This document shows, piece by piece, positions 9,910 through 23,464 of a stretch of 64,000 nt of DNA. A model generated the notes under the pieces. The model searched no databases. It was not told where the DNA came from and was given only the letters and a program-made list of their open reading frames with translations. Made by a program: the position numbers and the translations under genes. Each line of letters starts with the position of its first letter. Position 1 is the stretch's first letter. Source of the stretch: Myxococcota bacterium (GTDB lineage: Bacteria > Myxococcota_A > UBA9042); NCBI GenBank assembly GCA_049317445.1, contig JBMOIG010000002.1, forward strand, positions 2,635 through 66,634, given 5' to 3'.

Positions 9910-10019
9910 CGATTCGGCAAACGCGCCAAGCTGTGCTACTGTCGCCGCACGCTCTCATGAACGCTTCGTGAGAGTGACAACCGCGCCGGACAACGGTGCC
10001 AGGAAATGGGTACGTGCAG

Positions 10020-10436
10020 ATGGGAAACAAGCTTTTTGTCGGTGGCCTGAGCTGGGGAACGACGGACGAGTCGTTGCGCTCGGCCTTCGCGGAGTGTGGG
10101 GATGTGACGGACGCCAAGGTCATCACGGATCGTGAGACCGGCCGCTCGCGCGGTTTCGGCTTCGTTACGATGGCGGACGACGCCAGCGCTCGCGAGGCTG
10201 TGAGCCGCATGGACGGCCAGGCGATCGACGGTCGCACCGTCAAGGTCAGCGAGGCGCAAGAGCGCAGCCCCCGTAGCGGCGGCGGCGGCGGTGGCGGCGG
10301 CTTCGGCGGCGGCGGCGGCGGCGGTGGTGGCTACGGCGGCGGCGGCGACCGCGGCGGTCGCGGCGGCTTCGGCGGTGGCGGCGGCGGCGATCGCGGCGGC
10401 TTCGGCGGCGACCGCGGCGGCTTCGGCCGGCGCTAG
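10020..10436 (+). CDS. Glycine-rich RNA-binding protein (single RRM domain plus RGG/Gly tail)
   Basis: MGNKLFVGGLSWGTTDESLRSAF...RGFGFVTM contains the RNP-2 (LFVGGL) and RNP-1 (RGFGFVTM) motifs. C-terminal GGGGGGGGFGGGGGGGGGYGGGGDRGGRGGFGGG repeat tail. Confidence 0.85.
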   Translation: MGNKLFVGGLSWGTTDESLRSAFAECGDVTDAKVITDRETGRSRGFGFVTMADDASAREAVSRMDGQAIDGRTVKVSEAQERSPRSGGGGGGGGFGGGGGGGGGYGGGGDRGGRGGFGGGGGGDRGGFGGDRGGFGRR

Positions 10437-10493
10437 GCCCCAGCCACGGTCCGGGATGCCGGACCGACGCAAGCTACACTGCGAGCAAGCGAA

Positions 10494-10540
10494 CAACGCC
10501 CGCGGCACCGAAAGGAGCCGCGGGCGTTGTGCTTTTTGCC
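10494..10540 (+). terminator. Rho-independent terminator downstream of the RRM gene
   Basis: AACGCCCGCGGC-accgaaaggag-GCCGCGGGCGTT followed by GTGCTTTTTG. GC stem plus U-tract. Confidence 0.6.
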
Positions 10541-10630
10541 CCAAGCGCCGCTCATAGGAGTCCGGCGGCAGGCAGGCAGGCAAGCACCCTTCGGAACTCG
10601 CCGCCCAGGCCTCCGCGCATCCCCAAAACC

Positions 10631-10672
10631 AGAACGCCCGCGGGACCTTGCGGTGCCGCGGGCGTCCTTGAG
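10631..10672 (-). terminator. Probable terminator hairpin downstream of the A3 gene (end of the A/B array)
   Basis: Inverted repeat ACGCCCGCGG...CCGCGGGCGT located 35 nt beyond the stop at 10707. The stem sequence is the same as the neighbouring plus-strand terminator. No clear U-tract on the minus strand. Confidence 0.4.
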
Positions 10673-10706
10673 TTGAGAGCGAAGCCGCTATCGGCCGAGC
10701 GGCGAG

Positions 10707-12755
10707 CTACTGGTCGTAGCCGCCAGTGGCCGTGTCGAGGTCGTCGACGTACTGCAGTCCTGCGGGCAGGGCGAGGCTGTTGTTCGTGAAGCCCAAAATG
10801 AGCGTGCGGGACGAGTTGGACTCGGGACCAGTTGTCGAGACAAAGATCACCGTGCTCGTACGTCCAGCCGGAATCGACAGGGACACATCCTTCAGGCAGC
10901 CGGCATTGCAATTGCTGTCGGACGACCAAATGTTCTGTCCGTTGAGAGCGACCGAAGCGCGCTCCGACCAGCCGGGGTAGGCCGTGTATGCGAACCGAAC
11001 CGGCCAGGCTACGGTGGCGGCGGTGGTGTTCTTGATTCGGAACAGGGTGCCAGCAAAGCGCGACTGGCAGCTGCTACAGCCACGGTTGCGGCCGTACTTG
11101 AACCACTCGGAGTACACCCGCGCGTTGTTCATGGCGCTCCCCTTGCGATTGAAGAGCGTCGCCTGAATCGACTTGTCCGCGGAGATATCCGAAGCCTTGC
11201 CCTCACCATCGGACCAAGTCGACGGGTTGACGCCGCCAAAAAGGTCCGTCTGATTGCCGAATAGCCAGCCGCCGTTGCTGTTGTACGTGCTCCAAACGCC
11301 CCACCGGTAGGTCGAGGGGGTCAGGCCGCCAATGAACTGCGCAGCCGACACCTGACCGGTCACGGTGACGTTGCCGGTCACGGCGATGTTGCTCTTGACG
11401 TTGACTGTCTTGGCAGACACCAGCGTAAAGGCGACCGACCAGCTGTTGATCGCTCCGTCGGAATTGCCGCCCGTCACAGTGCTGTCCAGAACCTTCAGGT
11501 ACCACTTGCCTGCGGGGCTCTGACCCTTCCAGACGGAAAGATCGCCGGTGGCGACCGCCGTCGGGGTCGGGTAGGTCGTCTTCAGCACGGTGCCGCTACC
11601 CGACTTGTTGTGAAGGATGTACTCGTCACCATTCGGATCGTAGAGGTAGACGACCAGCTTGCCGATGTTGGAGTTGGTCAGATCCACCGACACCGTCATG
11701 CTCTGGATGGTGCCCAGCGCGCCGGCGGTGACGGAGTCGGTCACGCCGACGGGGCTGTTGTCAGGGATCGCGATGGCGGTCTTGCCGGCCAGCGTATCGG
11801 TGACCAAGTTGGTGAGGACGCCGTTCGACACGACCACGAGGCCGTCGTTCGGCAACATGTCGGCCGTCACCGACGGCGTCGCCGCCTCGACGCACGCCAA
11901 AGTACCGTCCGCGTTGATGCCTTCCGCAAGGAAGCCGGGGTCGCAAGCGGCGTCAGTGGCCACCAGCGTCGGCAGGTCACCCAAGTCGGCATAGCTGCCC
12001 GACGACGCGACGGTGGCAAGGTCAGCTGCCAGCGCATAGGCCGTCAGGTCCGGCACGCCGGTCAGGTCCGCGTACGCTCCCGAGGTCGCGAGTGCAGCCA
12101 GCGCGGCCGCCTTGGCGTAGATCGTCAGGTCCGGCGTCCCCGCCAAGTCCGCATACGCACCCGAAGATGCGAACTTGGTCAGGCCAGCCGACTTCGCGTA
12201 GGGCGCCAGGTCGGGCGTGCCTACCAGGTCCCCGTAGGCGCCGGTCGTTGCCGACTTGGAGAGGTCTGCCGACTTGACGTAGGGCGCAAGAACGGCCGGA
12301 TCGACGCTGGTCGACTTGACGCAGCCCGTGCAGTCCAACGCCTCGGTCACGATGCTGCGCATGGCGAACGGAACCGACGACAGCGACTGTCGCGGGAACT
12401 CAGGGTCCGCCCCGACCTTCACGCCGACAAACGGCGTCGTCAGGTTCGCAAAGACCGCCGGATTGATCGGCGTCTTCACGCCCAACGTGAAGTGGTAGAA
12501 GCCGCTCTTCACGGTCACGTTGACCGGACCCTCAGCAAACACCGCAACACCGCCGGAGGACGCTGCGTAGAGGCTGAAGGTCACGGCGTAGGTGCCGTCC
12601 GCCACGGGTCCGCCGCCCACCGAGAACAGGCCGCCGTGAACGGCAAGCGTGCTGGGGGCAGCGGCGAATGCGACGCCGGGCAGCGACAGGGCCAGGACGA
12701 CGGCCATGCTGCGCAACACGCCGAGTGCCTTGGAACCAGAGGTGAAGATGGTCAT
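10707..12755 (-). CDS. Family-A secreted protein A3: signal peptide, N-domain, phage-tail-fibre-like 22-aa repeats, P-domain (proprotein-convertase type), conserved unknown C-terminal domain
   Basis: 682 aa; MTIFTSGSKALGVLRSMAVVLALSLPGVAFA signal. Four to five tandem repeats YAK.A.L.K.ATSGAYADLxGxPDL. Segment GKLVVYLYDPNGDEYILHNKSGSGTVLKTTYP...WKGQSPAGKWYLKVLDSTVTGGNSDGAINSWSVAF resembles a P-domain. C-terminal ~220 aa (TYRWGVWSTYNSNGGW...LQYVDDLDTATGGYDQ) is conserved in all three paralogs. Paralogous to 15419-17068 and 19717-21756. Confidence 0.8.
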   Translation of the reverse strand: MTIFTSGSKALGVLRSMAVVLALSLPGVAFAAAPSTLAVHGGLFSVGGGPVADGTYAVTFSLYAASSGGVAVFAEGPVNVTVKSGFYHFTLGVKTPINPAVFANLTTPFVGVKVGADPEFPRQSLSSVPFAMRSIVTEALDCTGCVKSTSVDPAVLAPYVKSADLSKSATTGAYGDLVGTPDLAPYAKSAGLTKFASSGAYADLAGTPDLTIYAKAAALAALATSGAYADLTGVPDLTAYALAADLATVASSGSYADLGDLPTLVATDAACDPGFLAEGINADGTLACVEAATPSVTADMLPNDGLVVVSNGVLTNLVTDTLAGKTAIAIPDNSPVGVTDSVTAGALGTIQSMTVSVDLTNSNIGKLVVYLYDPNGDEYILHNKSGSGTVLKTTYPTPTAVATGDLSVWKGQSPAGKWYLKVLDSTVTGGNSDGAINSWSVAFTLVSAKTVNVKSNIAVTGNVTVTGQVSAAQFIGGLTPSTYRWGVWSTYNSNGGWLFGNQTDLFGGVNPSTWSDGEGKASDISADKSIQATLFNRKGSAMNNARVYSEWFKYGRNRGCSSCQSRFAGTLFRIKNTTAATVAWPVRFAYTAYPGWSERASVALNGQNIWSSDSNCNAGCLKDVSLSIPAGRTSTVIFVSTTGPESNSSRTLILGFTNNSLALPAGLQYVDDLDTATGGYDQ

Positions 12756-12849
12756 GAGATGCCCTCTCTTGCGGCGGGGTCGGTGGCTCTGGTGTCAGTT
12801 GCGTCGCCCCGCCGGCAACGCCTACTGTGCCTCTCGGCAAGCCCTGGTC
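12756..12849 (-). repeat. Conserved ~94-nt B-to-A intercistronic leader (copy 1), ~90% identical to 17069-17162
   Basis: Direct comparison: gagatgccctctcttgcggcggggtcggtgg(c/t)c(c/t)tggtg(a/t)cagt(c/t)gcgtcgccccgccggcaacgc(tt/ct)(g/a)ctgtgcct(t/c)tcggcaagccctggtc. In mRNA sense it contains an 8-bp GC stem CGGCGGGG...CCCCGCCG just 5' of the RBS AAGAGAGGG. Confidence 0.7.
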
Positions 12850-15366
12850 TTACTGCCCGATCAGTGCGCGGAGCCAAACGTACCAACCCAACCGGGTGAA
12901 GTACTTCTCGCCACCGCTCGCTTCGCCCGTCACGACGCTTGTGCCGACGTAGGTCTGCGTTCCATAGGTGCTTCCAGCAGCATTCACGGCAGCTGTGCCG
13001 AAGTCGACCGTCGCCGCTCCAGGCTCACAGCCCTCGTCGGTGATGCCGTCGCACGTGTCGTCGATGCCGTTGCAGGACTCGGAGTTCGCCGGCAGCACGG
13101 CGTCCTTGCAGATGCCGTAGGTGCCATCCGCCTGGCAAGCCTTCAGGCCATCCTTGCACTTGCCCTTGCCCTGGTTCTTCGGGTCGCCGGGGAAGCACGC
13201 GGCCGTGGCTGACGTGTCCACCTTGTGCGAGCACCCGGAGTCCTTGGCGCACGTGTCGGCGGTGCAGGGGTTGTTGTCGTCGCAGTTCGCCGCGGCACCG
13301 GAGACGCAGGTGTAGGCCTTGGTGACAGGATTCGTTCCGCAGGCGTCGCCCGAAGTGCACGCGTTGCCGTCGTCGCACGAGGCCGCGATCGGCTGGAAGA
13401 CGCAGGTGCCGGTCGTGGGGTCACACGCGTCCTTGGTGCAGTTCTCCTTGTCCTCACAGACCTTCTTGGGGCCTGCGACGCAGGAACCGCCGGCGCAGAC
13501 GTCGTTCACGGTGCAGGCGTTGCCGTCAGCGTCGCAAGGGGCCGTGTTGACAGTGAAGGTGCAACCCGACTTGGGGTCGCAGGCGTCGTCGGTGCAGAGA
13601 TTGGCGTCGTCGCACTTCTGCGCCGCGCCCTTGACGCACTGACCGTCTGCGCAGGCATCGTTCACGGTGCACAGGTCGTCGTCCGCGTTGCAGCCCGTAC
13701 CGACAACCGCCTTGGTGACCACGCACTGGCCGTCACCAGGATTGCACGCGACCGACTGGCACTGGTTGTTCAGGGTCTCGTCGCACTTGACCACGGAGTC
13801 CAGCTTGACGTTGCAGACCCACTTCACCGGGTCGGTCTTGTCGCAGAACAGCGTTCCGTTGCAGGCGTTGCCGTCCTCAGACGCCGCGCAGTCCTTGTCT
13901 TCAGCGCAGCTGCACTGGTTGGCGCCGGGAATGCAGGTTCCGGAGGTGCACTTGTCGCCAGGCGTACAAGGGTTGCCGTCGTCGCACGCCACGCCATCCG
14001 CGCCTGCCGGGTCGTGCACGCAGCCCTTGGAGGGCACACACGCATCCACCGTGCAGGGGTCCTTGTCGTCGCAGACCGTCGCGGTGTCCACCGCTGTGCC
14101 GGTGCACTTGCCGACCTTGCAGGCATCCTGCTCAGTGCAGGCGTCGCCGTCGTCGCAGACCGGCCCGTCCAAGTTGGCGTGCTTGCAGCCCAACATTGGG
14201 TCGCAGCTGTCCGCGCTGCAGGCATCCTTGTCGTTACAGTCGATCAGCTCGCCTCCGCAGGTCGAGGAGGTCGCGTCCGAGGCCAAGCAGACGTCTTTCA
14301 TCGTGCAGGCGCTGGCATCGTCGCAGGGTGTGCCGTCGGGCCGGGCGGCCGTCAGACAGTCTCCACTCGTCTTGTCGCATGAGCCGGACAGGCAGGGGTC
14401 GCCAGTCTCACACGTCTTGACTTCACCCTTGACGCAGGCGCCGTCCTTGCAGGTGTCGGCCACCGTGCAGGCGTCACCGTCAGCGTCACAGCTCGCGGTA
14501 TTGTTGGTGAAGACGCAGCCCTTCGCCGGGTCACACGTGTCGTCGGTGCACGGATTCTGGTCGTTGCACTCAAGGGTCGGACCTGGCTCGCACTTCGCCG
14601 CCTTGGTGCAGTAGTCGCCGTTGGTGCACAGGCTGTCGTCGGCGTTGCAGGTGCCCGTCTTCACCGCGTTCTTGCAGCCGTCCTTGCCCGCGCAAGAGTC
14701 CTCGGTGCATTGGTTGCTGTCGTCACAGGTCACGTCGTCGGTCGCGGCGTTGCAGTCGTTGTCGAGCCCGTCGCAGATCTCCGCCGTGGGCGCCTTGGCC
14801 GAGCAAGCGGTCAGGCCGGCCGCCTCGCACTTGCGAGTGCCCGTGCACTTGTTGACGCCCTGGGCGTCTGCGGAGAAGCAGGTCGTGTCCCAACCGGCGG
14901 CGATGGCGGCCTCACTGCACTTGCAGACGGCTCCGTCCTTCGGCACGCACTGCTTGACGGCGGCGCCGGTCACGTCCTTGACGTCAGCGCAGCCGTATCC
15001 GTCCGCGCAATCCTTGTCGACCGCGCACTTCGCTCCGCAAAACGCGCCGTCCTTGCCGAAGTCCACGCACACCGCGTCCGGAGCGCCGGCGCACTGGATG
15101 TTCGCCACGCAGGGAGCGCACAGGTCCCGGCCTTCCGGCTTCGCGATGTCCTGGTCCGTCATGTCGCCCGCAACATCGTCGGTGCTGTCCGGCTGGGTCA
15201 CATCGCCGGTGGTGTCTGCGGTGTCCGCGGTGTCCGCGACCACTGTGTCCGCGGGAGTCTCAGTCGTGGAACCGGCGTCGCCGCACGCGACCAGGCCGGC
15301 AGTAGCCAGTCCAAGTACACACGCCGTTGCGATGCGTCCAGCAAGCAGTTCTCGAAGGGTCTTCAT
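12850..15366 (-). CDS. Family-B cysteine-rich lipoprotein B2 (MopE-like CDGxDNDC motifs plus Myxococcus-type Cys-rich repeats)
   Basis: ATG 15366 with GAGGAGTGG RBS. MKTLRELLAGRIATACVLGLATAGLVACGD (lipobox LVAC). About 20 units of C-[DN]-D-x-[ND]-x-C-T-x-D-x-C spacing. AEICDGLDNDCNAATDD and ESCNGIDDTCDGITDEGC motifs. C-terminal GGEKYFTRLGWYVWLRALIGQ. Longer ORF to 15405 adds 13 unlikely residues. Confidence 0.75.
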   Translation of the reverse strand: MKTLRELLAGRIATACVLGLATAGLVACGDAGSTTETPADTVVADTADTADTTGDVTQPDSTDDVAGDMTDQDIAKPEGRDLCAPCVANIQCAGAPDAVCVDFGKDGAFCGAKCAVDKDCADGYGCADVKDVTGAAVKQCVPKDGAVCKCSEAAIAAGWDTTCFSADAQGVNKCTGTRKCEAAGLTACSAKAPTAEICDGLDNDCNAATDDVTCDDSNQCTEDSCAGKDGCKNAVKTGTCNADDSLCTNGDYCTKAAKCEPGPTLECNDQNPCTDDTCDPAKGCVFTNNTASCDADGDACTVADTCKDGACVKGEVKTCETGDPCLSGSCDKTSGDCLTAARPDGTPCDDASACTMKDVCLASDATSSTCGGELIDCNDKDACSADSCDPMLGCKHANLDGPVCDDGDACTEQDACKVGKCTGTAVDTATVCDDKDPCTVDACVPSKGCVHDPAGADGVACDDGNPCTPGDKCTSGTCIPGANQCSCAEDKDCAASEDGNACNGTLFCDKTDPVKWVCNVKLDSVVKCDETLNNQCQSVACNPGDGQCVVTKAVVGTGCNADDDLCTVNDACADGQCVKGAAQKCDDANLCTDDACDPKSGCTFTVNTAPCDADGNACTVNDVCAGGSCVAGPKKVCEDKENCTKDACDPTTGTCVFQPIAASCDDGNACTSGDACGTNPVTKAYTCVSGAAANCDDNNPCTADTCAKDSGCSHKVDTSATAACFPGDPKNQGKGKCKDGLKACQADGTYGICKDAVLPANSESCNGIDDTCDGITDEGCEPGAATVDFGTAAVNAAGSTYGTQTYVGTSVVTGEASGGEKYFTRLGWYVWLRALIGQ

Positions 15367-15418
15367 CTGCCACTCCTCGGTCCGACGGCGTTCAGTGCTG
15401 TGCAAGTCGCAACCCGCA

Positions 15419-17068
15419 TCAGTTGTCCCAACCGTTCGCGGCGGTCTCCAGATCGTCCACGTACTCGAGGCCGTCCGGCAGAGTCAGCGTCGGATGGCGG
15501 AAGCCAAGCATGACAAGCACGTTGCCGCGTCCGCCTGGGCCGTTGCTGCTCACGAAGATGACGGTGCTGGTTCGGTTGGCCGGGATGGTCAACGCGACGC
15601 TCTGCTCACAACCGTTGCCGCAGTCGTTGCCGGATTGCCAGACGTTGCTGCCGTTCAGGGCGACGGAGGCCTGATTGCTCCACCCTGAATACGAGGTGTA
15701 GACGTACTTCACGGTCCAGGTGATGGCAGAGCCCGTGCTGTTTCGGACACGCATGAGGGTTCCGGCGAATCGCGCGGCTTGGCTGTAGTTGCCACCAATC
15801 TGAAACTGCTCGGCAACGACGTTCGCGGCAGAGCGGGCGTAGCCCTTGCGATTGAACAGCGATGCAAGCACGTTTTTGTCCGAGCTCATCGCAGCCGCAT
15901 TGGCCATGCTCTCAGCCCAGTTCGACGGGTTGACGCCGCCAAACAGGCTGGCGTTGTTGCCCCAGAACCAGTCGTTGCAGTTCAGGTAGGTGTCCCACAT
16001 GCCCCAGCGGTACGTCGCGGTCGGCACGCCCTTGATCGGCTTGGAAACGATGAGGTTGCCGGTGATGGTCAGGTTGCCGGCGGCGCTGAAGTTGTCCGCC
16101 ACCTTCAGGGTGCCGCTGACGTTCTGAAGGATGCCGTTCGAGATGGCTCCGAGTCCGTCCGGGGGAAGCGACGCGGCGGGCAGCAGACCTACCATCGCCT
16201 GGGCGCAATCCAACGAACCGTCCGCCTTGATGCCCTTGACCACCAGACCCGTGCCGCAGCTGACGCCGAGGGCGACGTGGGTGGGCAGTCCTGCGAGGTC
16301 GGCGTAGGCGCCCGTCGTGGCGACCTTGGCGAGGTTGGCCTTGACGGCAAATCCCGTAAGGTCGGGCGCATCCGCGACATCGGCGAACTTGCCTGACGTC
16401 GCGACCGTCGCCAGGTTGCCCGACTGTGCGTAGACGGCGAGGTTCGGCGTGCCCGCGACGGTGGCGTAGGCGCCCGAGGTCGCGACCTTGGCGAGGTCAG
16501 CGATCTTCGCGTAGGGCGAAAGGTCAGGCGTGCCCGCAAAGTCGGCATAGGCGCCTGAGGTCGCGGCCTTCGCCAAGCCAGCGGACTTCGCATAAGGCGC
16601 GAGCACCGCGGCGTCCAACTGACCGGACGTGATGCAGCCCGTGCAGTCCACGCCGTCGGCGGTGGCCGACCGCAGTGCGTAGGGCAGCGCACCCATCGGC
16701 TGGCGGGCCAGCTCCGGGTCGGCGCCAATCTTGATGCCGAGATACGGCGTGGCCAAGGCCACCACGACCGCGGGGTCCAGCAGCGTCTTGGAGCCGATGG
16801 TGTACTGGTAGTAGCCACCCTTCACGGCGACCACGACCGGCCCCTCAACGTACACCGGGTTTCCGCCCACGGCGGCCTGGTACAGGCTGAAGGTCATGAA
16901 GTAGTTGCCATCCGACACCGCGCCACCGCCGGCAGCGAACAACCCGCCATGAACCGCCATCGAGCTGGGCACGGCCGCAAAAGCGACGCCCGACAGCGAC
17001 AGGGCCAGGACGACGGTCATGCTGCGCAACACGCCGAGTGCCTTGGATCCAGAGGTGAAGATGGTCAT
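15419..17068 (-). CDS. Family-A secreted protein A2 (short form: tail-fibre-like repeats and C-domain, P-domain absent)
   Basis: ATG 17068 gives MTIFTSGSKALGVLRSMTVVLALSLSGVAFA, nearly identical at nucleotide level to the A3 start. Repeats LAKAATSGAYADFAGTPDLSPYAK... C-terminal ATYRWGMWDTYLNCNDWFWGN...LEYVDDLETAANGWDN. The ~110-aa P-domain segment of A1/A3 is missing. Confidence 0.75.
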   Translation of the reverse strand: MTIFTSGSKALGVLRSMTVVLALSLSGVAFAAVPSSMAVHGGLFAAGGGAVSDGNYFMTFSLYQAAVGGNPVYVEGPVVVAVKGGYYQYTIGSKTLLDPAVVVALATPYLGIKIGADPELARQPMGALPYALRSATADGVDCTGCITSGQLDAAVLAPYAKSAGLAKAATSGAYADFAGTPDLSPYAKIADLAKVATSGAYATVAGTPNLAVYAQSGNLATVATSGKFADVADAPDLTGFAVKANLAKVATTGAYADLAGLPTHVALGVSCGTGLVVKGIKADGSLDCAQAMVGLLPAASLPPDGLGAISNGILQNVSGTLKVADNFSAAGNLTITGNLIVSKPIKGVPTATYRWGMWDTYLNCNDWFWGNNASLFGGVNPSNWAESMANAAAMSSDKNVLASLFNRKGYARSAANVVAEQFQIGGNYSQAARFAGTLMRVRNSTGSAITWTVKYVYTSYSGWSNQASVALNGSNVWQSGNDCGNGCEQSVALTIPANRTSTVIFVSSNGPGGRGNVLVMLGFRHPTLTLPDGLEYVDDLETAANGWDN

Positions 17069-17162
17069 GAGATGCCCTCTCTTGCGGCGGGGTCGGTGGC
17101 CCTGGTGACAGTCGCGTCGCCCCGCCGGCAACGCTTGCTGTGCCTTTCGGCAAGCCCTGGTC
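17069..17162 (-). repeat. Conserved ~94-nt B-to-A intercistronic leader (copy 2)
   Basis: See 12756-12849. Same hairpin-plus-RBS arrangement preceding A2. Confidence 0.7.
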
Positions 17163-19649
17163 CTATTGTCCGATCAGCGTACGCAGCCAGATGTACCAGC
17201 CCAACCGGGCGAAGTACTTCTCACCACCGCTGGCGTCTCCCGTGACTGCGCTTGTTCCCATGTACGACTGCGTGCCGTAAGTCGCGCCCGTTGCGCTGAT
17301 GGCGGCGACGCCGAAACCGATCTTGGACGAACCCGGCTCGCACCCCTCATCGGTGGCGCCGTTGCAGGTGTCGTCGATGCCGTTGCAGAGCTCTGCAGAA
17401 CCCGGCAAGACGGCGCCCGTGCAGCTGCCGAACTTTCCGTCTGCCTGGCAGAACTTGACGCCGTCCTTGCACTTGCCCTTGCCCTGATTGGCCGGGTCGC
17501 CGGGGAAGCAGGCTGCCTTGACGTTCGTGTCGACCTTGTGGGCACACCCGTTGTCCTTCGCGCACGAGTCGATGGTGCAAGGGTTGCCGTCGTCGCAGTC
17601 CACGCCCTTGCCGGGCACGCAGGTGTACACCTTGGTGGCGGGGTCGGAACCGCAAGCGTCGCCGGTCGTGCAGGCGTTGCCGTCGTCGCAGGTCGCCGTG
17701 ATGCCTTCGAACACGCAGAGCGCAGACGTAGCGTCGCAGGAGTCCTTGGTGCATTCCTCGCTGTCGTCGCAGACCTTCTTGGCACCCGCGACACACGACC
17801 CGCCCGCGCAGATGTCGTTCACCGTGCAGGCGTCGCCATCTGCGTCACATGACGCGGTATTCGGCGTGAACTTGCAGCCGTTCTTCGGGTCGCAGGTGTC
17901 GTTGGTGCAACCGTTGCTGTCGTCGCACTTCTCAGCGGACCCCTTGGCGCAGATGCCGTTGGCGCAAGCGTCCTTGACGGTGCACACGTCGTTGTCGGCG
18001 TTGCACGCCGTGCCCGCCTCGGCCTGGCTGACGACGCACTTGCCGGTGGCGGTGTCGCACGCCACGCTCTGGCAGGCGGTGTTGAGCGACTCGTCGCACT
18101 TGACGATCGTGTTCTTGTTGACGTTGCAGACCCACTTCATCGGGTCAGCCTTGTCGCAGACCAGCGTTCCGTTGCAGAGATCCCCATCTTCCGCGGGTGC
18201 GCAGTCCGCATCCTTGGTGCATTGGCACTGATTCACGCCACCCTCGCACGTCCCGGCCTTGCACTTGTCGTTGGGGGTGCAGGGGTTGCCGTCTTCGCAG
18301 GCCGCGCCGTCAGCGCCGGCGACGTCGTGCACGCAGCCCTTGTCCGGCGAGCAGGTGTCGGCCGTGCAGGGGTCCTTGTCGTCGCACGCCTTGGCCACTT
18401 CCAAAGCCGCGCCGCTGCACTTGCCGGCGACGCAGGCGTCGTCGAGGGTGCAGGCGTTGCCGTCGTTGCAGACGCCGACGTCCAGAGGTGCGTGCTTGCA
18501 ACCCACCGTCGGGTCGCAGCTGTCGGCCGTGCAGTTGCTGAGGTCGTCGCAGTCCACGATCTCGCCGCCGCAGGTCGAGGTAGTAGCGTCGGAGGCCAAG
18601 CAGACGTCGGACACGGTGCAGGCGCTGGCGTCGTCGCAAGGGGTGCCGTCGGGGCGCGTGGCCTTGGTGCACTTGCCGGTCGCTTCGTCGCAGCCGCCGA
18701 TAAGGCACGCGTCGCCCGTCTCGCAGGCCTTGAGCGCGCCGGCCTGGCAAGTGCCGTCCTTGCACATGTCCCCGAGCGTGCACGCTTTTCCATCCGCGCA
18801 CTCGACCGTGTTGTTGGCGTACTGGCAGCCCTTGGTCGGGTCGCACGAGTCGTCGGTGCAGGGGTTCTTGTCGTCGCAGTCAAGCGCCTTGCCCGGCGCG
18901 CAGGTGCCGTCCTTGCACGCATCCTTGTCGGTGCAGGCACTGCCGTCGGCGTCGCACGCCGCCGTGTTGGCCTTGTTCTCGCAACCGGCGACGCCTGCGC
19001 ACTTGTCGTCGGTGCAAAGGTTCTGGTCGTCGCAAGACACGTCGTCGGTCTGGGCGTTGCAGTCGTTGTCGAGACCGTCGCAGATCTCAGCAGACGGCGC
19101 CTTTGCCGAGCACGCCGACAGGCCGCCCGCTTCGCACTTGCGGGTTCCCGTGCACTTGTTGACGCCCTTGTCATCGGCCACGAAGCACGTCGTGTCCCAA
19201 GCGCCCGCGGTGGCCGCAACGCTGCACGTGCAGAGGGCGCCGGCCTTGGGAACGCACTGCTTGACCGCCGCACCCGCCACGTCCTTGACGTCGCTGCAGC
19301 CGTAACCGTCGGCGCAGTCCGTGTCGACCGTACACTTCGCTCCGCAGAAGGCCCCATCCTTGCCGAAGTCGACGCAGACGGAGTCGGGCTTGGTCGTGCC
19401 CTGACACTGCTCATTGGCGGTGCAGGGGGCGCACAGCTCAGCGCGACCATCAGGTGCGACCGTGTCTTCGGTGACGGTATCGGGCAGGGCCACGTCTTCG
19501 GTGGTGTCGGTTGCATCGCCAACGACGGTGTCCGTGGCATCACCCTGCACGCTGCCACTGTCACCGCAGGCTGCAACACCGGTCGCGGCGAGGCCAATGG
19601 CGCACGCCGTGCCGATATGTCCCGCTAGCAGTTCTCGAAGGGTCTTCAT
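17163..19649 (-). CDS. Family-B cysteine-rich lipoprotein B1
   Basis: 828 aa; MKTLRELLAGHIGTACAIGLAATGVAACGD (lipobox VAAC). Same architecture and about 70-75% identity to B2. Ends GGEKYFARLGWYIWLRTLIGQ. Confidence 0.8.
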   Translation of the reverse strand: MKTLRELLAGHIGTACAIGLAATGVAACGDSGSVQGDATDTVVGDATDTTEDVALPDTVTEDTVAPDGRAELCAPCTANEQCQGTTKPDSVCVDFGKDGAFCGAKCTVDTDCADGYGCSDVKDVAGAAVKQCVPKAGALCTCSVAATAGAWDTTCFVADDKGVNKCTGTRKCEAGGLSACSAKAPSAEICDGLDNDCNAQTDDVSCDDQNLCTDDKCAGVAGCENKANTAACDADGSACTDKDACKDGTCAPGKALDCDDKNPCTDDSCDPTKGCQYANNTVECADGKACTLGDMCKDGTCQAGALKACETGDACLIGGCDEATGKCTKATRPDGTPCDDASACTVSDVCLASDATTSTCGGEIVDCDDLSNCTADSCDPTVGCKHAPLDVGVCNDGNACTLDDACVAGKCSGAALEVAKACDDKDPCTADTCSPDKGCVHDVAGADGAACEDGNPCTPNDKCKAGTCEGGVNQCQCTKDADCAPAEDGDLCNGTLVCDKADPMKWVCNVNKNTIVKCDESLNTACQSVACDTATGKCVVSQAEAGTACNADNDVCTVKDACANGICAKGSAEKCDDSNGCTNDTCDPKNGCKFTPNTASCDADGDACTVNDICAGGSCVAGAKKVCDDSEECTKDSCDATSALCVFEGITATCDDGNACTTGDACGSDPATKVYTCVPGKGVDCDDGNPCTIDSCAKDNGCAHKVDTNVKAACFPGDPANQGKGKCKDGVKFCQADGKFGSCTGAVLPGSAELCNGIDDTCNGATDEGCEPGSSKIGFGVAAISATGATYGTQSYMGTSAVTGDASGGEKYFARLGWYIWLRTLIGQ

Positions 19650-19716
19650 CTGACTCTCCCTGGTTCAGGGTCAGGTGGTCGAGGAGGTCCAGTCTACGCC
19701 AGTCGCGCTACCGGAC

Positions 19717-21756
19717 TTACTGCTCCCAACCGCCCGTCGCCGTGTCCAGATCGTCGACGAGTTCGAGACCATTCGGCATGTTGAGGCTGTCGTTGTAGAA
19801 GCCCAGCATGAGCGCGCGGGAGCCGCAGGATTCCGGGCCGGTACCTGCGATGAAGATGACCGTGCTGGTGCGGTTGGCGGGGATCGTCAACCCGGCGCTG
19901 GCTGTGCATCCCACGTAGCAGTCGCTGCCGGTCCAGACCGTATTGCCGTTGATCATCAAAGCCGAGCGCTCGCCCCAACCTTGGTACGAGGTGGCCACCC
20001 AGTACAGCGGCCAGTTGATGCCGCTGCCGGTCGTGTTCTTGACGCGGAATAGGGCACCTGCTCGCTTGGCCTCTGTGCTGCCAATCTGATTACCCTTGCG
20101 CCACATCTGCGCCGTGACCAACGTATTGAATTTCGCGTAACCCTTCTCGGAGAAGAGCGTAGCGAGCGACACCTTGGCGGAGGACATGTCGCTGGGATTC
20201 GGGTTGCTGTCGCACCAAGTAGACGGAGCCACACCACCGAACAACTCGCCGTCGTTGTTCATGAACCAGCCGCTACCATGGTCATAGCAGTCCCACACAG
20301 CAAAGCGGTACTTGGCCTTGGGCAAGCCGAGGATGCTGCCGCCGACGGTGATGGAACCGGCGACCGTGGCGTTGCCGACGACCGTGGCGGAGCCGCTGAC
20401 GCCGACTTTGTTCCCGGAGATCACTTGGAAGTTGAGCGACCACGCCGTGACCTTGCCGTCGATGTTGCCGTCGAGCTTGCCGCTATCGACGACCTTCAAG
20501 TACCACTTGCCCTTGGGGTTCTTGCCGATCCAGGTGGTCAGGTCGCCGCTGGCCGGACTGGTCGGGTCAGGGTAGGAGGTCTTCAGCGTGGTGCCAAAGC
20601 TGCTCTTGTTGTACAGGACGTACGCGGCGCCGGCCGGGTCGTAGAGCGTCACTTGAATCTTGGCGAGGTCGGAGTTCAAGAGGTTGATCGACACGGTGAA
20701 GGTCTGGACGATGCCGATGTCGCCAACTTCGACGGTGTCGGTCGCACCAACCGGGGTGTTGTCCGGGATCGGCAGGTTCGGGGTGCCCGAGATCTTCTCA
20801 GCGAAGACGTTGGTCAGCAGGTTGTTCGAGACCTCGTCGAGGCCATCCTTGGGCAGGTTTGCCGCAAGCACGCTGGTGATGTTCGTCTGAACGCAGTCGA
20901 GCGAACCGTCTTCCAGGAAGCCGGCCACGAGCAGGCCGGTGCCGCAGGACTGACCCACCTGAGCAACGGCGGGAGCACCGGCAAGGTCGTTGTACGAGTT
21001 GGTGGTCGCTACGGTCGCGAGGTCGGCCGCCTTGGCGTAGCCCGCCAGGTCCGGCACGCCGGTGAGGTCGGCGTAGGCACCGGAGACCGCAACCTTGGCG
21101 AGCGAGGCCGCCTTGGCGTAGATGGCGAGGTCCGGGGTGCCGGAGACGTCGGCGTAGGCGCCCGTCGTGGCAACCTTGGCAAGCCCAGCCGTCTTTGCGT
21201 ACGCCGTGAGGTCCGGTGCGCCCGTGACGTCCGCGTAGGCGCCCGACGTCGCGACCTTGGCCAGCGTGTCCGTCTTGGCGTACGGCGCCAGAACGTCTGC
21301 AGCCAAGTGGGTCGCCTTGAGGCACCCGGTGCAGCCCAGCGAGTCGCTGACCGAGGAACGCAGGGCGTACGGCACCGACGTCATGGGCAGCTTGGTGAAC
21401 TCAGGGTCGGTGCCGACCTGAATCGCCAAGTACGGCGACGTCAGCTTCGCCAGCGTGTCGGCGCTGAGCGACGCCTTGGTGCCGAGCGTGTACTGGAAGA
21501 CGCCATTCTTGACAGTGACGCCAGTGGGGCCTTCCACGTAGGCGGCGCTGCTGCCGATGGCCGACGGGTAGATGCTGAACGTCATCTGGTAAGCGCCATC
21601 TGAAATCGGCCCGCCGCCAACTGCGTACAGTCCGCCGTGCACGTCGATGAGCTTGGGCACGGCTGCGAAGGCCACGCCGGGAAGCGCAAGCAGCAAGGCG
21701 AAGGCCATGCTGCGCACGACGCCGAGAGCCTTGGAACGATGGGTGAAGATCGTCAT
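19717..21756 (-). CDS. Family-A secreted protein A1 (promoter-proximal paralog with P-domain)
   Basis: ATG 21756 gives MTIFTHRSKALGVVRSMAFALLLALPGVAFA. Repeats AKVATSGAYADVTGAPDLTAYAKTAGL... P-domain AKIQVTLYDPAGAAYVLYNKSSFGTTLKTSYP...KGKWYLKVVDSGKLDGNIDGKVTAWSLNF. C-terminal ...LELVDDLDTATGGWEQ. Confidence 0.8.
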   Translation of the reverse strand: MTIFTHRSKALGVVRSMAFALLLALPGVAFAAVPKLIDVHGGLYAVGGGPISDGAYQMTFSIYPSAIGSSAAYVEGPTGVTVKNGVFQYTLGTKASLSADTLAKLTSPYLAIQVGTDPEFTKLPMTSVPYALRSSVSDSLGCTGCLKATHLAADVLAPYAKTDTLAKVATSGAYADVTGAPDLTAYAKTAGLAKVATTGAYADVSGTPDLAIYAKAASLAKVAVSGAYADLTGVPDLAGYAKAADLATVATTNSYNDLAGAPAVAQVGQSCGTGLLVAGFLEDGSLDCVQTNITSVLAANLPKDGLDEVSNNLLTNVFAEKISGTPNLPIPDNTPVGATDTVEVGDIGIVQTFTVSINLLNSDLAKIQVTLYDPAGAAYVLYNKSSFGTTLKTSYPDPTSPASGDLTTWIGKNPKGKWYLKVVDSGKLDGNIDGKVTAWSLNFQVISGNKVGVSGSATVVGNATVAGSITVGGSILGLPKAKYRFAVWDCYDHGSGWFMNNDGELFGGVAPSTWCDSNPNPSDMSSAKVSLATLFSEKGYAKFNTLVTAQMWRKGNQIGSTEAKRAGALFRVKNTTGSGINWPLYWVATSYQGWGERSALMINGNTVWTGSDCYVGCTASAGLTIPANRTSTVIFIAGTGPESCGSRALMLGFYNDSLNMPNGLELVDDLDTATGGWEQ

Positions 21757-22189
21757 GAGCAGTCCTCTTGTGCGGCGGGGTCGGTAGCCGTGGACGTTCG
21801 CAAGGCGAAGGTCCCAGTAGGGATGCGACGGCGGCGCGTTGGTGCGCAGAGCGGGCATCGAGGAGCCGAGCGCCGAACCGAGGTTCAGTGCCAAGTTGGG
21901 CCTTCTATCCTATCAGACGGCAAACGCAAGCACTCCACGATCCAGCGGCCCGTTGATGATTCGCTGGGAGAGACCGACGAAGGTGGCAGGCTGTGCCTAA
22001 GGCATTGAAAGAATGGCTGCACACCTCTTCTTCCTGATGGTCTGGAAGACTTCCGTTCCTTACCACTACACACATAGAGTCGGTCTCAGGTCCCCTCCGC
22101 GACGTCGGCGGGTGCCCTTGCGGATCCCGGGCGGCCAAGCGACGATGCCGTCCGGGCCCCTCCCCCACGGCCCTTTGGAGTGCAACCAC

Positions 22190-23464
22190 ATGACCCGCAA
22201 GCCAGAAGGTTTCCTGGGCGACCGGCCCCTGAAGCCCGAGTCGCTGATGATGAGCTACGGCTACGACCCCCACCGGTCGGAGGGAGCTCTGAAGTCCCCG
22301 ATCTTCCAGACTTCCACCTTCGTGTTTCGCACCGCGGAGGAGGGCAAGGCGTTCTTCGAGGTCGCCTACGGCCTGCGCGAAAAGGGGCCCCGCGAGGAGC
22401 TGGGGCTCATCTACAGCCGCCTGAACAACCCCGATCTGGAGATCCTGGAGGACCGGCTGACGCTGTGGGACGACGCGGAGGCGTGCGCCGTCTTCGAGAG
22501 CGGCATGGCGGCCTGCGCGACGACCCTGATGGAGTTCGCGCGACCCGGTGAGTTCATTGCCCACAGCACGCCAATCTACGGTGGGACCGACTACCTGTTG
22601 GGCCACGTGCTGCCGCGCTTTGGGATCACCGGCGTTCCGTTCCCGGCGGGTGGTGGCGCTGTGGCCATGGAAGCTGCGCTGGAGAAGGCCGGCGCCCAAG
22701 GCAAGCTGTCGGCCGTGTTTCTGGAGACGCCTGCCAACCCCACGAATGCTTTGGTGGATATCGCGGCGTGCTCTGAGGTCAGTCGGCGCTGGGCCGCACC
22801 GGGGCGACAGGTTCCCGTCATCGTGGACAACACGTTCCTGGGTCCGCTGTGGCAGCAGCCGCTCAAGCACGGCGCCGACCTGGTGCTGTACTCTGCGACG
22901 AAATTCCTTGGTGGTCACAGTGACTTGATTGCCGGAGCCTGTTTGGGGCGCAAGGAGTTGATCGACCGCGTCCGGACGCTGCGCACCTTCCTGGGCACCA
23001 TGTCGGGTCCGTGGACGGGGTGGCTGCTGATGCGCAGTCTGGAGACGTTGAAGGTCCGCATGACCTGCCAGATGAGGAATGCCCGGCAGATCGCGGACTT
23101 CTTGAACGATCATCCGAAGATCCAGCGCGTGCACTACCTGGGGCTGCTGAAGCAGGGCGACGCGCAGTTCGACCTGTATCGACGGCAGTGCCTGGGGCCG
23201 GGGTCGATCATCACGTTTGAGGTGCAGGGCGGCGAGTTGGAGGCCTTCCGGCTGCTGAACGCGCTGGAGCTCGTGACGCTGGCCGTCAGTCTGGGCGGCA
23301 CCGAGTCGTTGGCAGAGCACCCAGCCACGATGACGCACGCGGACGTGCTGCCCGCCACCCAGCGCGAGATGGGGATCACTTCGGCGATGGTGCGGTTGTC
23401 GGTCGGCGTCGAGCACGTCGACGACTTGATTGCAGATCTGACGCAAGCGCTCGAGAAAGTGTAA
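22190..23464 (+). CDS. Cys/Met-metabolism PLP-dependent enzyme (cystathionine gamma-synthase / methionine gamma-lyase family)
   Basis: [27 protein letters not shown]...[11 protein letters not shown]...[11 protein letters not shown]...[16 protein letters not shown] has the PLP-lysine motif. Start chosen at ATG 22190; the upstream in-frame extension from 22013 is probably leader. Confidence 0.8.

Follow-up and report, generated by a model that had tools for sequence, protein, structure and literature searches.

Protective intercistronic hairpins have precedents in papBA, malEF and puf (Dar & Sorek 2018, PMC5927463), and wobble positions beside such protective structures are reported to be unusually conserved (PMC5927463). 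The malE-malF REP and puf structures are 3' "decay terminators" shielding the upstream cistron. The elements described here are two 94-nt leaders found in the 64,000-nucleotide stretch of DNA that was analysed (the window), each carrying a GC hairpin before an internal gene. An initial annotation had suggested that a hairpin in this place could be functional, acting on translation or as a processing site. The data presented below show that the leaders are real cis-elements, maintained by selection, of the internal A cistrons; a functional role of the hairpin within them is plausible but unproven, no compensatory pair being found.

The five-gene array and its relatives

The array is encoded on the reverse strand of a window with a GC content of 67.7%, in the order A1-B1-A2-B2-A3. 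The promoter-proximal A1 (19717-21756, -) contains a P-domain (PF01483), and A3 (10707-12755, -; 682 aa) is secreted and has a proprotein-convertase P-domain (PF01483, E=9e-11). In A2 (15419-17068, -; 549 aa), the protein alignment shows the P-domain segment to be deleted; the missing stretch of about 130 residues holds the P-domain in A1 and A3, and A2 has the same form in all three lineages compared below. B1 (17163-19649, -) and B2 (12850-15366, -) are Cys-rich repeat proteins with PF00526-type repeats, the B2 start codon having been chosen against B1 and the L006 and L008 gene calls. Signal peptides are present on the A proteins and a lipoprotein-type cysteine motif, LVAC, at the N-terminus of the B proteins. 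Neither A3 nor B2 gave a match when searched by sequence against the PDB. The A proteins also contain tandem 27-residue repeats at residues ~155-260 (consensus ~LAKVATSGAYADLxGxPDLxxYAKxAx), visible both in the protein alignment and as 81-nt DNA repeats at 11925-12305 (-).

The spacers within the array measure 67, 94, 52 and 94 nt. Its neighbours in the orthologous contigs are a divergent Cys/Met-metabolism gene on the upstream side and a convergent RRM gene on the downstream side. Since these same-strand spacers lie between divergent and convergent neighbours, the simplest reading is that A1-B1-A2-B2-A3 forms a single five-gene operon, whose genes would be co-transcribed. A canonical intrinsic terminator is found 3' of A3 (10623-10666, -), where ACGCCCGCGG / CCGCGGGCGT form an all-GC 10-bp stem with a 12-nt loop, then a U-rich tail. 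The unit would be limited by the divergent gene upstream and by this terminator downstream, and the two 94-nt spacers would be the 5' leaders of its internal cistrons A2 and A3. The same stem sequence is present in a hairpin at 10490-10527; the two hairpins stand back to back, separating A3 from the convergent RRM/RGG-tail gene at 9996-10436 (+), itself ending in a long GGC-repeat tail, and they look like the terminators of two convergent units.

A genome scan and exact-protein look-ups recovered the array, with all five genes, from three lineages: the window, L002 with L006 and L007, and L001 with L008. The closest relatives are Myxococcota/Myxococcales MAGs. L001 (CAYURO010000036.1) is publicly entitled 'uncultured Enterobacteriaceae bacterium' and carries a high-GC Myxococcota-type array like that of the Myxococcales MAG L002; its Enterobacteriaceae label is probably wrong. 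Pairwise identity at third codon positions between the window and L001 or L002 is 78-91%.

The A family is widespread among Myxococcota MAGs, the MTIFT signal peptide and the leader being limited to the close clade. The distant arrays have the orders A-B-A-A-A (L003) and A-A-A-A (L005), and L004 is a second A locus of the L001 MAG. Neither a homologous leader nor an equivalent GC stem was found in L003, L004 or L005; the single B-to-A spacer of L003 has a modest hairpin (z +0.8). When a covariance model of the leader was run on the window and five other loci, it recovered the two window copies and no others, a 19-bit match in L005 being rejected for its many non-canonical pairs. A REP/BIME-like dispersed repeat was also rejected, with two copies only in the window and none in the five other loci. 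Two further A genes, P0007 and P0014, are solitary and lack a B-to-A junction, and a protein-pattern scan of metagenome contigs for relatives at intermediate distance found none. The tandem A paralogs at 12450-19218 in L005 and 11144-15119 in L003 share 87-99% identity in their first ~1250 nt, and their last ~230 codons are unrelated (~40% identity), a mosaic, tip-swapped architecture that recalls the Bdellovibrio MAT fibres. A1 itself matches NF053851 (Bdello_MAT_N) weakly, at 22 bits for a cut-off of 60, which does not establish membership.

Paralog identity and selection on the leaders

The leader running from the B2 stop to the A3 ATG (12756-12849, -) and the B1-to-A2 leader (17069-17162, -) are both 94 nt long and are identical without gaps at 88 of 94 positions (93.6%), in agreement with the ~90% given by the initial annotation. 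They belong to an identity island of 184 nt (12666-12849), composed of the leader and A codons 1-30, which is 93.5% identical. The earlier description had carried the identity through the first ~60 A codons and, at high level, into the 3' ends of the B genes, and both extensions proved too generous. A2 and A3 differ at 6/90 positions in codons 1-30 and at 25/90 in codons 31-60, with 25-38 differences per 90 nt beyond codon 30, and the B genes share ~78-82% identity over their last 60-120 nt, slightly above a background of 69%. Of the fourfold sites of A2 and A3, 18/20 are identical in codons 1-30 and 48/102 further on. The two share an exact run of up to 52 nt (12787-12736), longer than any obtained in 2000 shuffles (maximum 41). 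The island is thus beyond chance, it being understood that the two leader and hairpin copies in the window do not represent independent events.

Outside the island, the B-A units are 69% identical and their fourfold sites 47% identical, near saturation. The very recent duplication formerly offered as an explanation is refuted by these values, and the island must result from local conversion, from selection or from both. A local island with a sharp drop-off in otherwise diverged paralogs, as expected of gene conversion, is indeed observed (93.5% vs 69%). The neutral divergence between orthologues also expected of it is not. Across the three lineages, 33.7% of the fourfold-degenerate sites (n=1807) are variable, against 4 of 94 sites in the A3 leader and 3 of 94 in the A2 leader (P ~1e-12 for each at the fourfold rate). 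According to established population-genetic theory, neutral concerted evolution does not lower the divergence between orthologues. Gene conversion, the other explanation previously proposed, is therefore insufficient when taken alone, given leaders with 3-4/94 variable sites, and the comparison across lineages indicates that purifying selection acts on the nucleotide sequence of both leaders.

Some gene conversion is nevertheless plausible. That the A2 and A3 leaders are nearly identical to each other (vs ~80% to A1) is probably due in part to old conversion between the internal units, and the A3 leader of the L001 lineage has A2-type bases at positions 26, 28, 55 and +20 together with A3-type bases at 62 and +52. 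With three lineages, this patchy distribution is compatible with conversion and equally with lineage-specific substitutions.

Tight constraint is not limited to the leaders. The A1-B1 spacer has 10/67 variable sites in the three lineages and the A2-B2 spacer (15367-15418, -) only 1/52; the latter, conserved like the leaders, has no notable hairpin (z -0.33), so that such constraint is not peculiar to the spacers that carry one. In the interval -94..-31, which includes the 5' arm of the hairpin, 3-4/64 sites are variable before A2 and A3 versus 15/64 before A1. This difference indicates that a feature specific to the internal leaders, outside the block shared by all A genes, is also under selection. 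More generally, near-identical paralog leaders can mean selection and not recent duplication.

The initiation block, the GC hairpin and their interpretation

In the orthologue comparison, the strongest constraint falls on a block from -30 to +60 at all three A starts, made up of the 3' arm, the Shine-Dalgarno sequence (SD), the ATG and the first 20 codons (A3, 12696-12785; A2, 17009-17098; A1, 21697-21786; all -). In successive 30-nt bins, the invariance among the three lineages is 1.00, 0.97 and 1.00 for A3, 1.00 throughout for A2 (0/60 coding sites variable), and 1.00, 1.00 and 0.97 for A1, where it falls sharply to 0.77 upstream of -30. The third positions of codons 1-20 show 0, 0 and 1 variable sites in A1, A2 and A3, respectively, and the 52-nt exact run lies inside the A3 block. 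The block starts with the C-rich CCGACCCCGCCGCA, which includes the 3' arm of the hairpin, and its SD, GAGAGGG in A3 (12762-12768, -; 6 nt before the ATG) with an equivalent in A2 (17075-17081, -), stands outside the GC hairpin in the folds. In A1, only this RBS-proximal half exists, as originally reported: CCGACCCCGCCGCA is at 21784-21771 and CCGACCCCGCCGCACAAGAGG is present without an upstream arm, no CGGCGGGG occurs in the 416 nt upstream, the sole 1-mismatch site being at 22099, and beyond -30 nothing is shared with the internal leaders. Since the 3' arm shows the same invariance in A1, its conservation does not need the stem; the best-supported functional core is the initiation block common to all A genes.

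In the A3 leader, the hairpin (12772-12814, -) joins CGGCGGGG (12814-12807) to CCCCGCCG (12779-12772), and its counterpart in the A2 leader (17085-17127, -) has its arms at 17127-17120 and 17092-17085. The 8-bp stem announced by the initial annotation is present in both leaders with a loop of 27 nt instead of 28, and it stops 1 nt short of AAGAGAGGG and ~5 nt short of the GAGG core, where 2-3 nt had once been stated for the distance to the RBS. Folding of the leader RNA with RNAfold, suggested at the time as a check, places the stem in the MFE and centroid structures of both copies with the SD outside. The 50-nt MFE of the hairpin reaches -24.0 kcal/mol in A3 and -24.9 kcal/mol in A2 (lowest 2.4% and 1.6% of local windows, respectively), so that the hairpin is moderately unusual, in the top ~2% of local 50-nt folds. 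Compared with dinucleotide shuffles, the folding energy is not better (z -0.52, -0.66, -1.23 and -0.84). The A1-to-B1 spacer (19640-19730, -, A1 stop included) gives a stronger thermodynamic signal than the B-to-A leaders flagged at the outset, with z = -2.37 and 3/200 shuffles as good.

No change affects the stem in the six orthologous copies from the three lineages, and the variation in the hairpin (positions 50, 55 and 62, at which the A2 and A3 copies of the window differ, and one insertion) is confined to the loop. An unchanged 10-nt 5' arm among ~10 variable sites is not significant (estimated P ~0.2). The search for covariation gave 0/39 compensatory pairs with RNAalifold in the six leaders of the three lineages (covariation term +0.11; one pair broken in 2/6 leaders), the leaders being at least 96% identical, a divergence too low for zero covariation to count against the structure. 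As for conservation of the stem in other arrays, it is absent from the distant ones, and the close ones are uninformative because the surroundings of the stem are invariant there too.

A smaller hairpin, GCUUGCC-GAGA-GGCA.CAG, occurs 8 nt after the B2 stop (12824-12842, -; A2-leader equivalent 17137-17155), with a GNRA loop (GAGA or GAAA) and one pair alternating between G-U and G-C. Its support is weak, since two lineages have a U-A pair broken to A-A in their A2 leaders. Two other structures were discarded: an alternative partner for the A1 3' arm, whose best upstream duplex is ~375 nt away (-20.3 kcal/mol) and is attributed to chance in GC-rich DNA, and a hairpin sequestering the SD/AUG in A1, A2 and A3 alike, the paralog folds being different and one apparent compensatory change, ACGA/UCGU versus ACCA/UGGU, being offset by an A-A mismatch in A2. 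An Rfam cmscan of 10000-23000 at E<=1 returned a single, unrelated snoRNA match (E=0.99).

Taken together, these data lead us to favour, tentatively, a lineage-specific translation-initiation leader, the hairpin of which may be a papBA-like 5' protective structure or an insulating one. The primary selected unit would be the ~90-nt block -30..+60, that is CCGACCCCGCCGCA, the SD, the ATG and 20 signal-peptide codons. In A2 and A3 only, the complementary CGGCGGGG is placed 27 nt upstream of the block, so that the first 8 nt of the block could pair stably and be locked in a stem (~-24 kcal/mol) leaving the SD single-stranded. If formed in vivo, the stem could hold the A initiation region open whatever the B sequence or the terminating ribosomes do and, following an upstream cut of the polycistronic RNA as in the papBA model, it would become the structured 5' end of the A segment, with a possible effect on translation or decay. 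The GC stem would in this case be a plausible, unproven addition specific to the internal cistrons (CGCGCCGG designates a mutant form of its 5' arm CGGCGGGG).

It is possible, and nearly as likely as the papBA-like or insulating role, that the hairpin is incidental: selection would act on the primary sequence of the A initiation region and of the spacers, the additional similarity of A2 and A3 would be a conversion tract, and the CGGCGGGG/CCCCGCCG complementarity would be fortuitous at 68% GC. The most invariant block, found in all A genes including A1 with its missing 5' arm, is what this predicts, and neither covariation nor significant z-scores point to the structure. A perfect 8-bp stem is present in 3.8% of 94-nt windows, the 12+12 nt inverted repeat has 25 metagenome matches, all in unrelated, GC-rich coding DNA, the patchy A2- and A3-type bases of the L001-lineage A3 leader are typical of conversion, and near-identical 5' parts recur in the tandem A paralogs of other arrays. 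Fortuitous pairing accounts less easily for an internal -94..-31 interval (3-4/64 variable) far more conserved than the same interval of A1 (15/64) or the fourfold sites, and for a stem that is free of every variable site of the hairpin region.

The selection on the leaders could also concern the DNA itself, acting either as a promoter inside the operon or as an inverted repeat bound by a regulator and giving each A gene its own transcription, and each A copy of L005 is indeed preceded by ~250 nt of conserved DNA with a promoter-like TTGACC-N18-CATCAT. We consider this unlikely, as a promoter scan found no sigma-70-like site anywhere in 10000-23000, the half-sites are 27 nt apart, which is atypical of a dimeric regulator, and the A1 upstream region has no sequence in common with the leaders beyond -30; nor can GGCAC...TTGC be read as a sigma-54 site, its G-to-G spacing being 15 instead of 12 nt. 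Rather improbable, though it would concern the same block, is a docking site for a dedicated trans-acting regulator (an RNA-binding protein, or an sRNA whose seed is G-rich), which would co-ordinate or switch the alternative adhesive-fibre paralogs of a predatory Myxococcota lineage, the internal CGGCGGGG arm serving as a decoy or anti-target that sets a threshold different from that of A1. The position of a GC-rich stem between two cistrons might suggest a leaky terminator or attenuator lowering transcription into A2 and A3; with a 27-nt loop, no U-tract, CAAGAGAGGG coming after the stem and a negative terminator scan of the leaders, it would be very different from the genuine A3 terminator, with its 10-bp stem, 12-nt loop and U-rich tail, and we give it little credit. 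An overlapping gene in another frame would explain the frozen synonymous sites, and in both copies a 102-aa ORF (12532-12840 and 16845-17153, -) starting at a TTG in the leader does stay open across the leader and the 5' end of A. Such an origin of the conservation is nonetheless hardly credible: long open off-frames are expected at 68% GC, the Arg/Pro-rich product shows no recognisable features, the A1 block, lacking a comparable start context, is just as frozen, and the conservation of A falls past +60 when the ORF runs to +220. These 102-codon ORFs probably represent the open off-frame that is usual in GC-rich DNA.

If the stem of the favoured initiation leader tunes the output of A2 and A3, it would provide a simple, operon-internal and post-transcriptional control of stoichiometry in Myxococcota. 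The gene family concerned, secreted P-domain fibre proteins and Cys-rich lipoproteins, may relate to prey or surface recognition. For the engineering or expression of the A genes, the native -94..+60 context should be retained, because selection acts at the nucleotide level on the leader and codons 1-20 of each A gene.

Comparison with described systems

Tandem A paralogs with conserved N-terminal and divergent C-terminal parts are reminiscent of the chimeric MAT fibres of Bdellovibrio (PMC10769870). The island described here differs in measuring only 184 nt and in including a non-coding leader, and its conservation across lineages indicates selection, in contrast to homogenisation alone as in concerted evolution.

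With the malE-malF REP and puf elements, the leaders share a stable GC stem situated within an operon shortly after the stop of the upstream (B) gene and devoid of a U-tract. However, the leader stem abuts the downstream RBS and not the upstream stop, and its loop is of 27 nt. REP elements are moreover dispersed and multi-copy, whereas the leader element is found only at the two B-to-A junctions.

The closest likeness is to papBA of the E. coli pap operon. The host here is by contrast an uncultured Myxococcota lineage, and the resemblance is drawn from sequence and predicted folds. The 94-nt leader contains no AUU or UUU; the RNase E motif RN|WUU is the enterobacterial one and may not be that of the Myxococcota enzyme. 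In both systems an intercistronic hairpin lies just upstream of the RBS of the downstream cistron, and both leaders do have a stable hairpin (~-24 kcal/mol) directly in front of this site. In either case, an abundant secreted structural protein of fibre or pilus type is the product of the downstream gene, which ends in a strong terminator, here that of A3, and wobble positions adjoining the structure are conserved here as in PMC5927463. The leader is in this respect a lineage-specific case of a known kind of operon feature.
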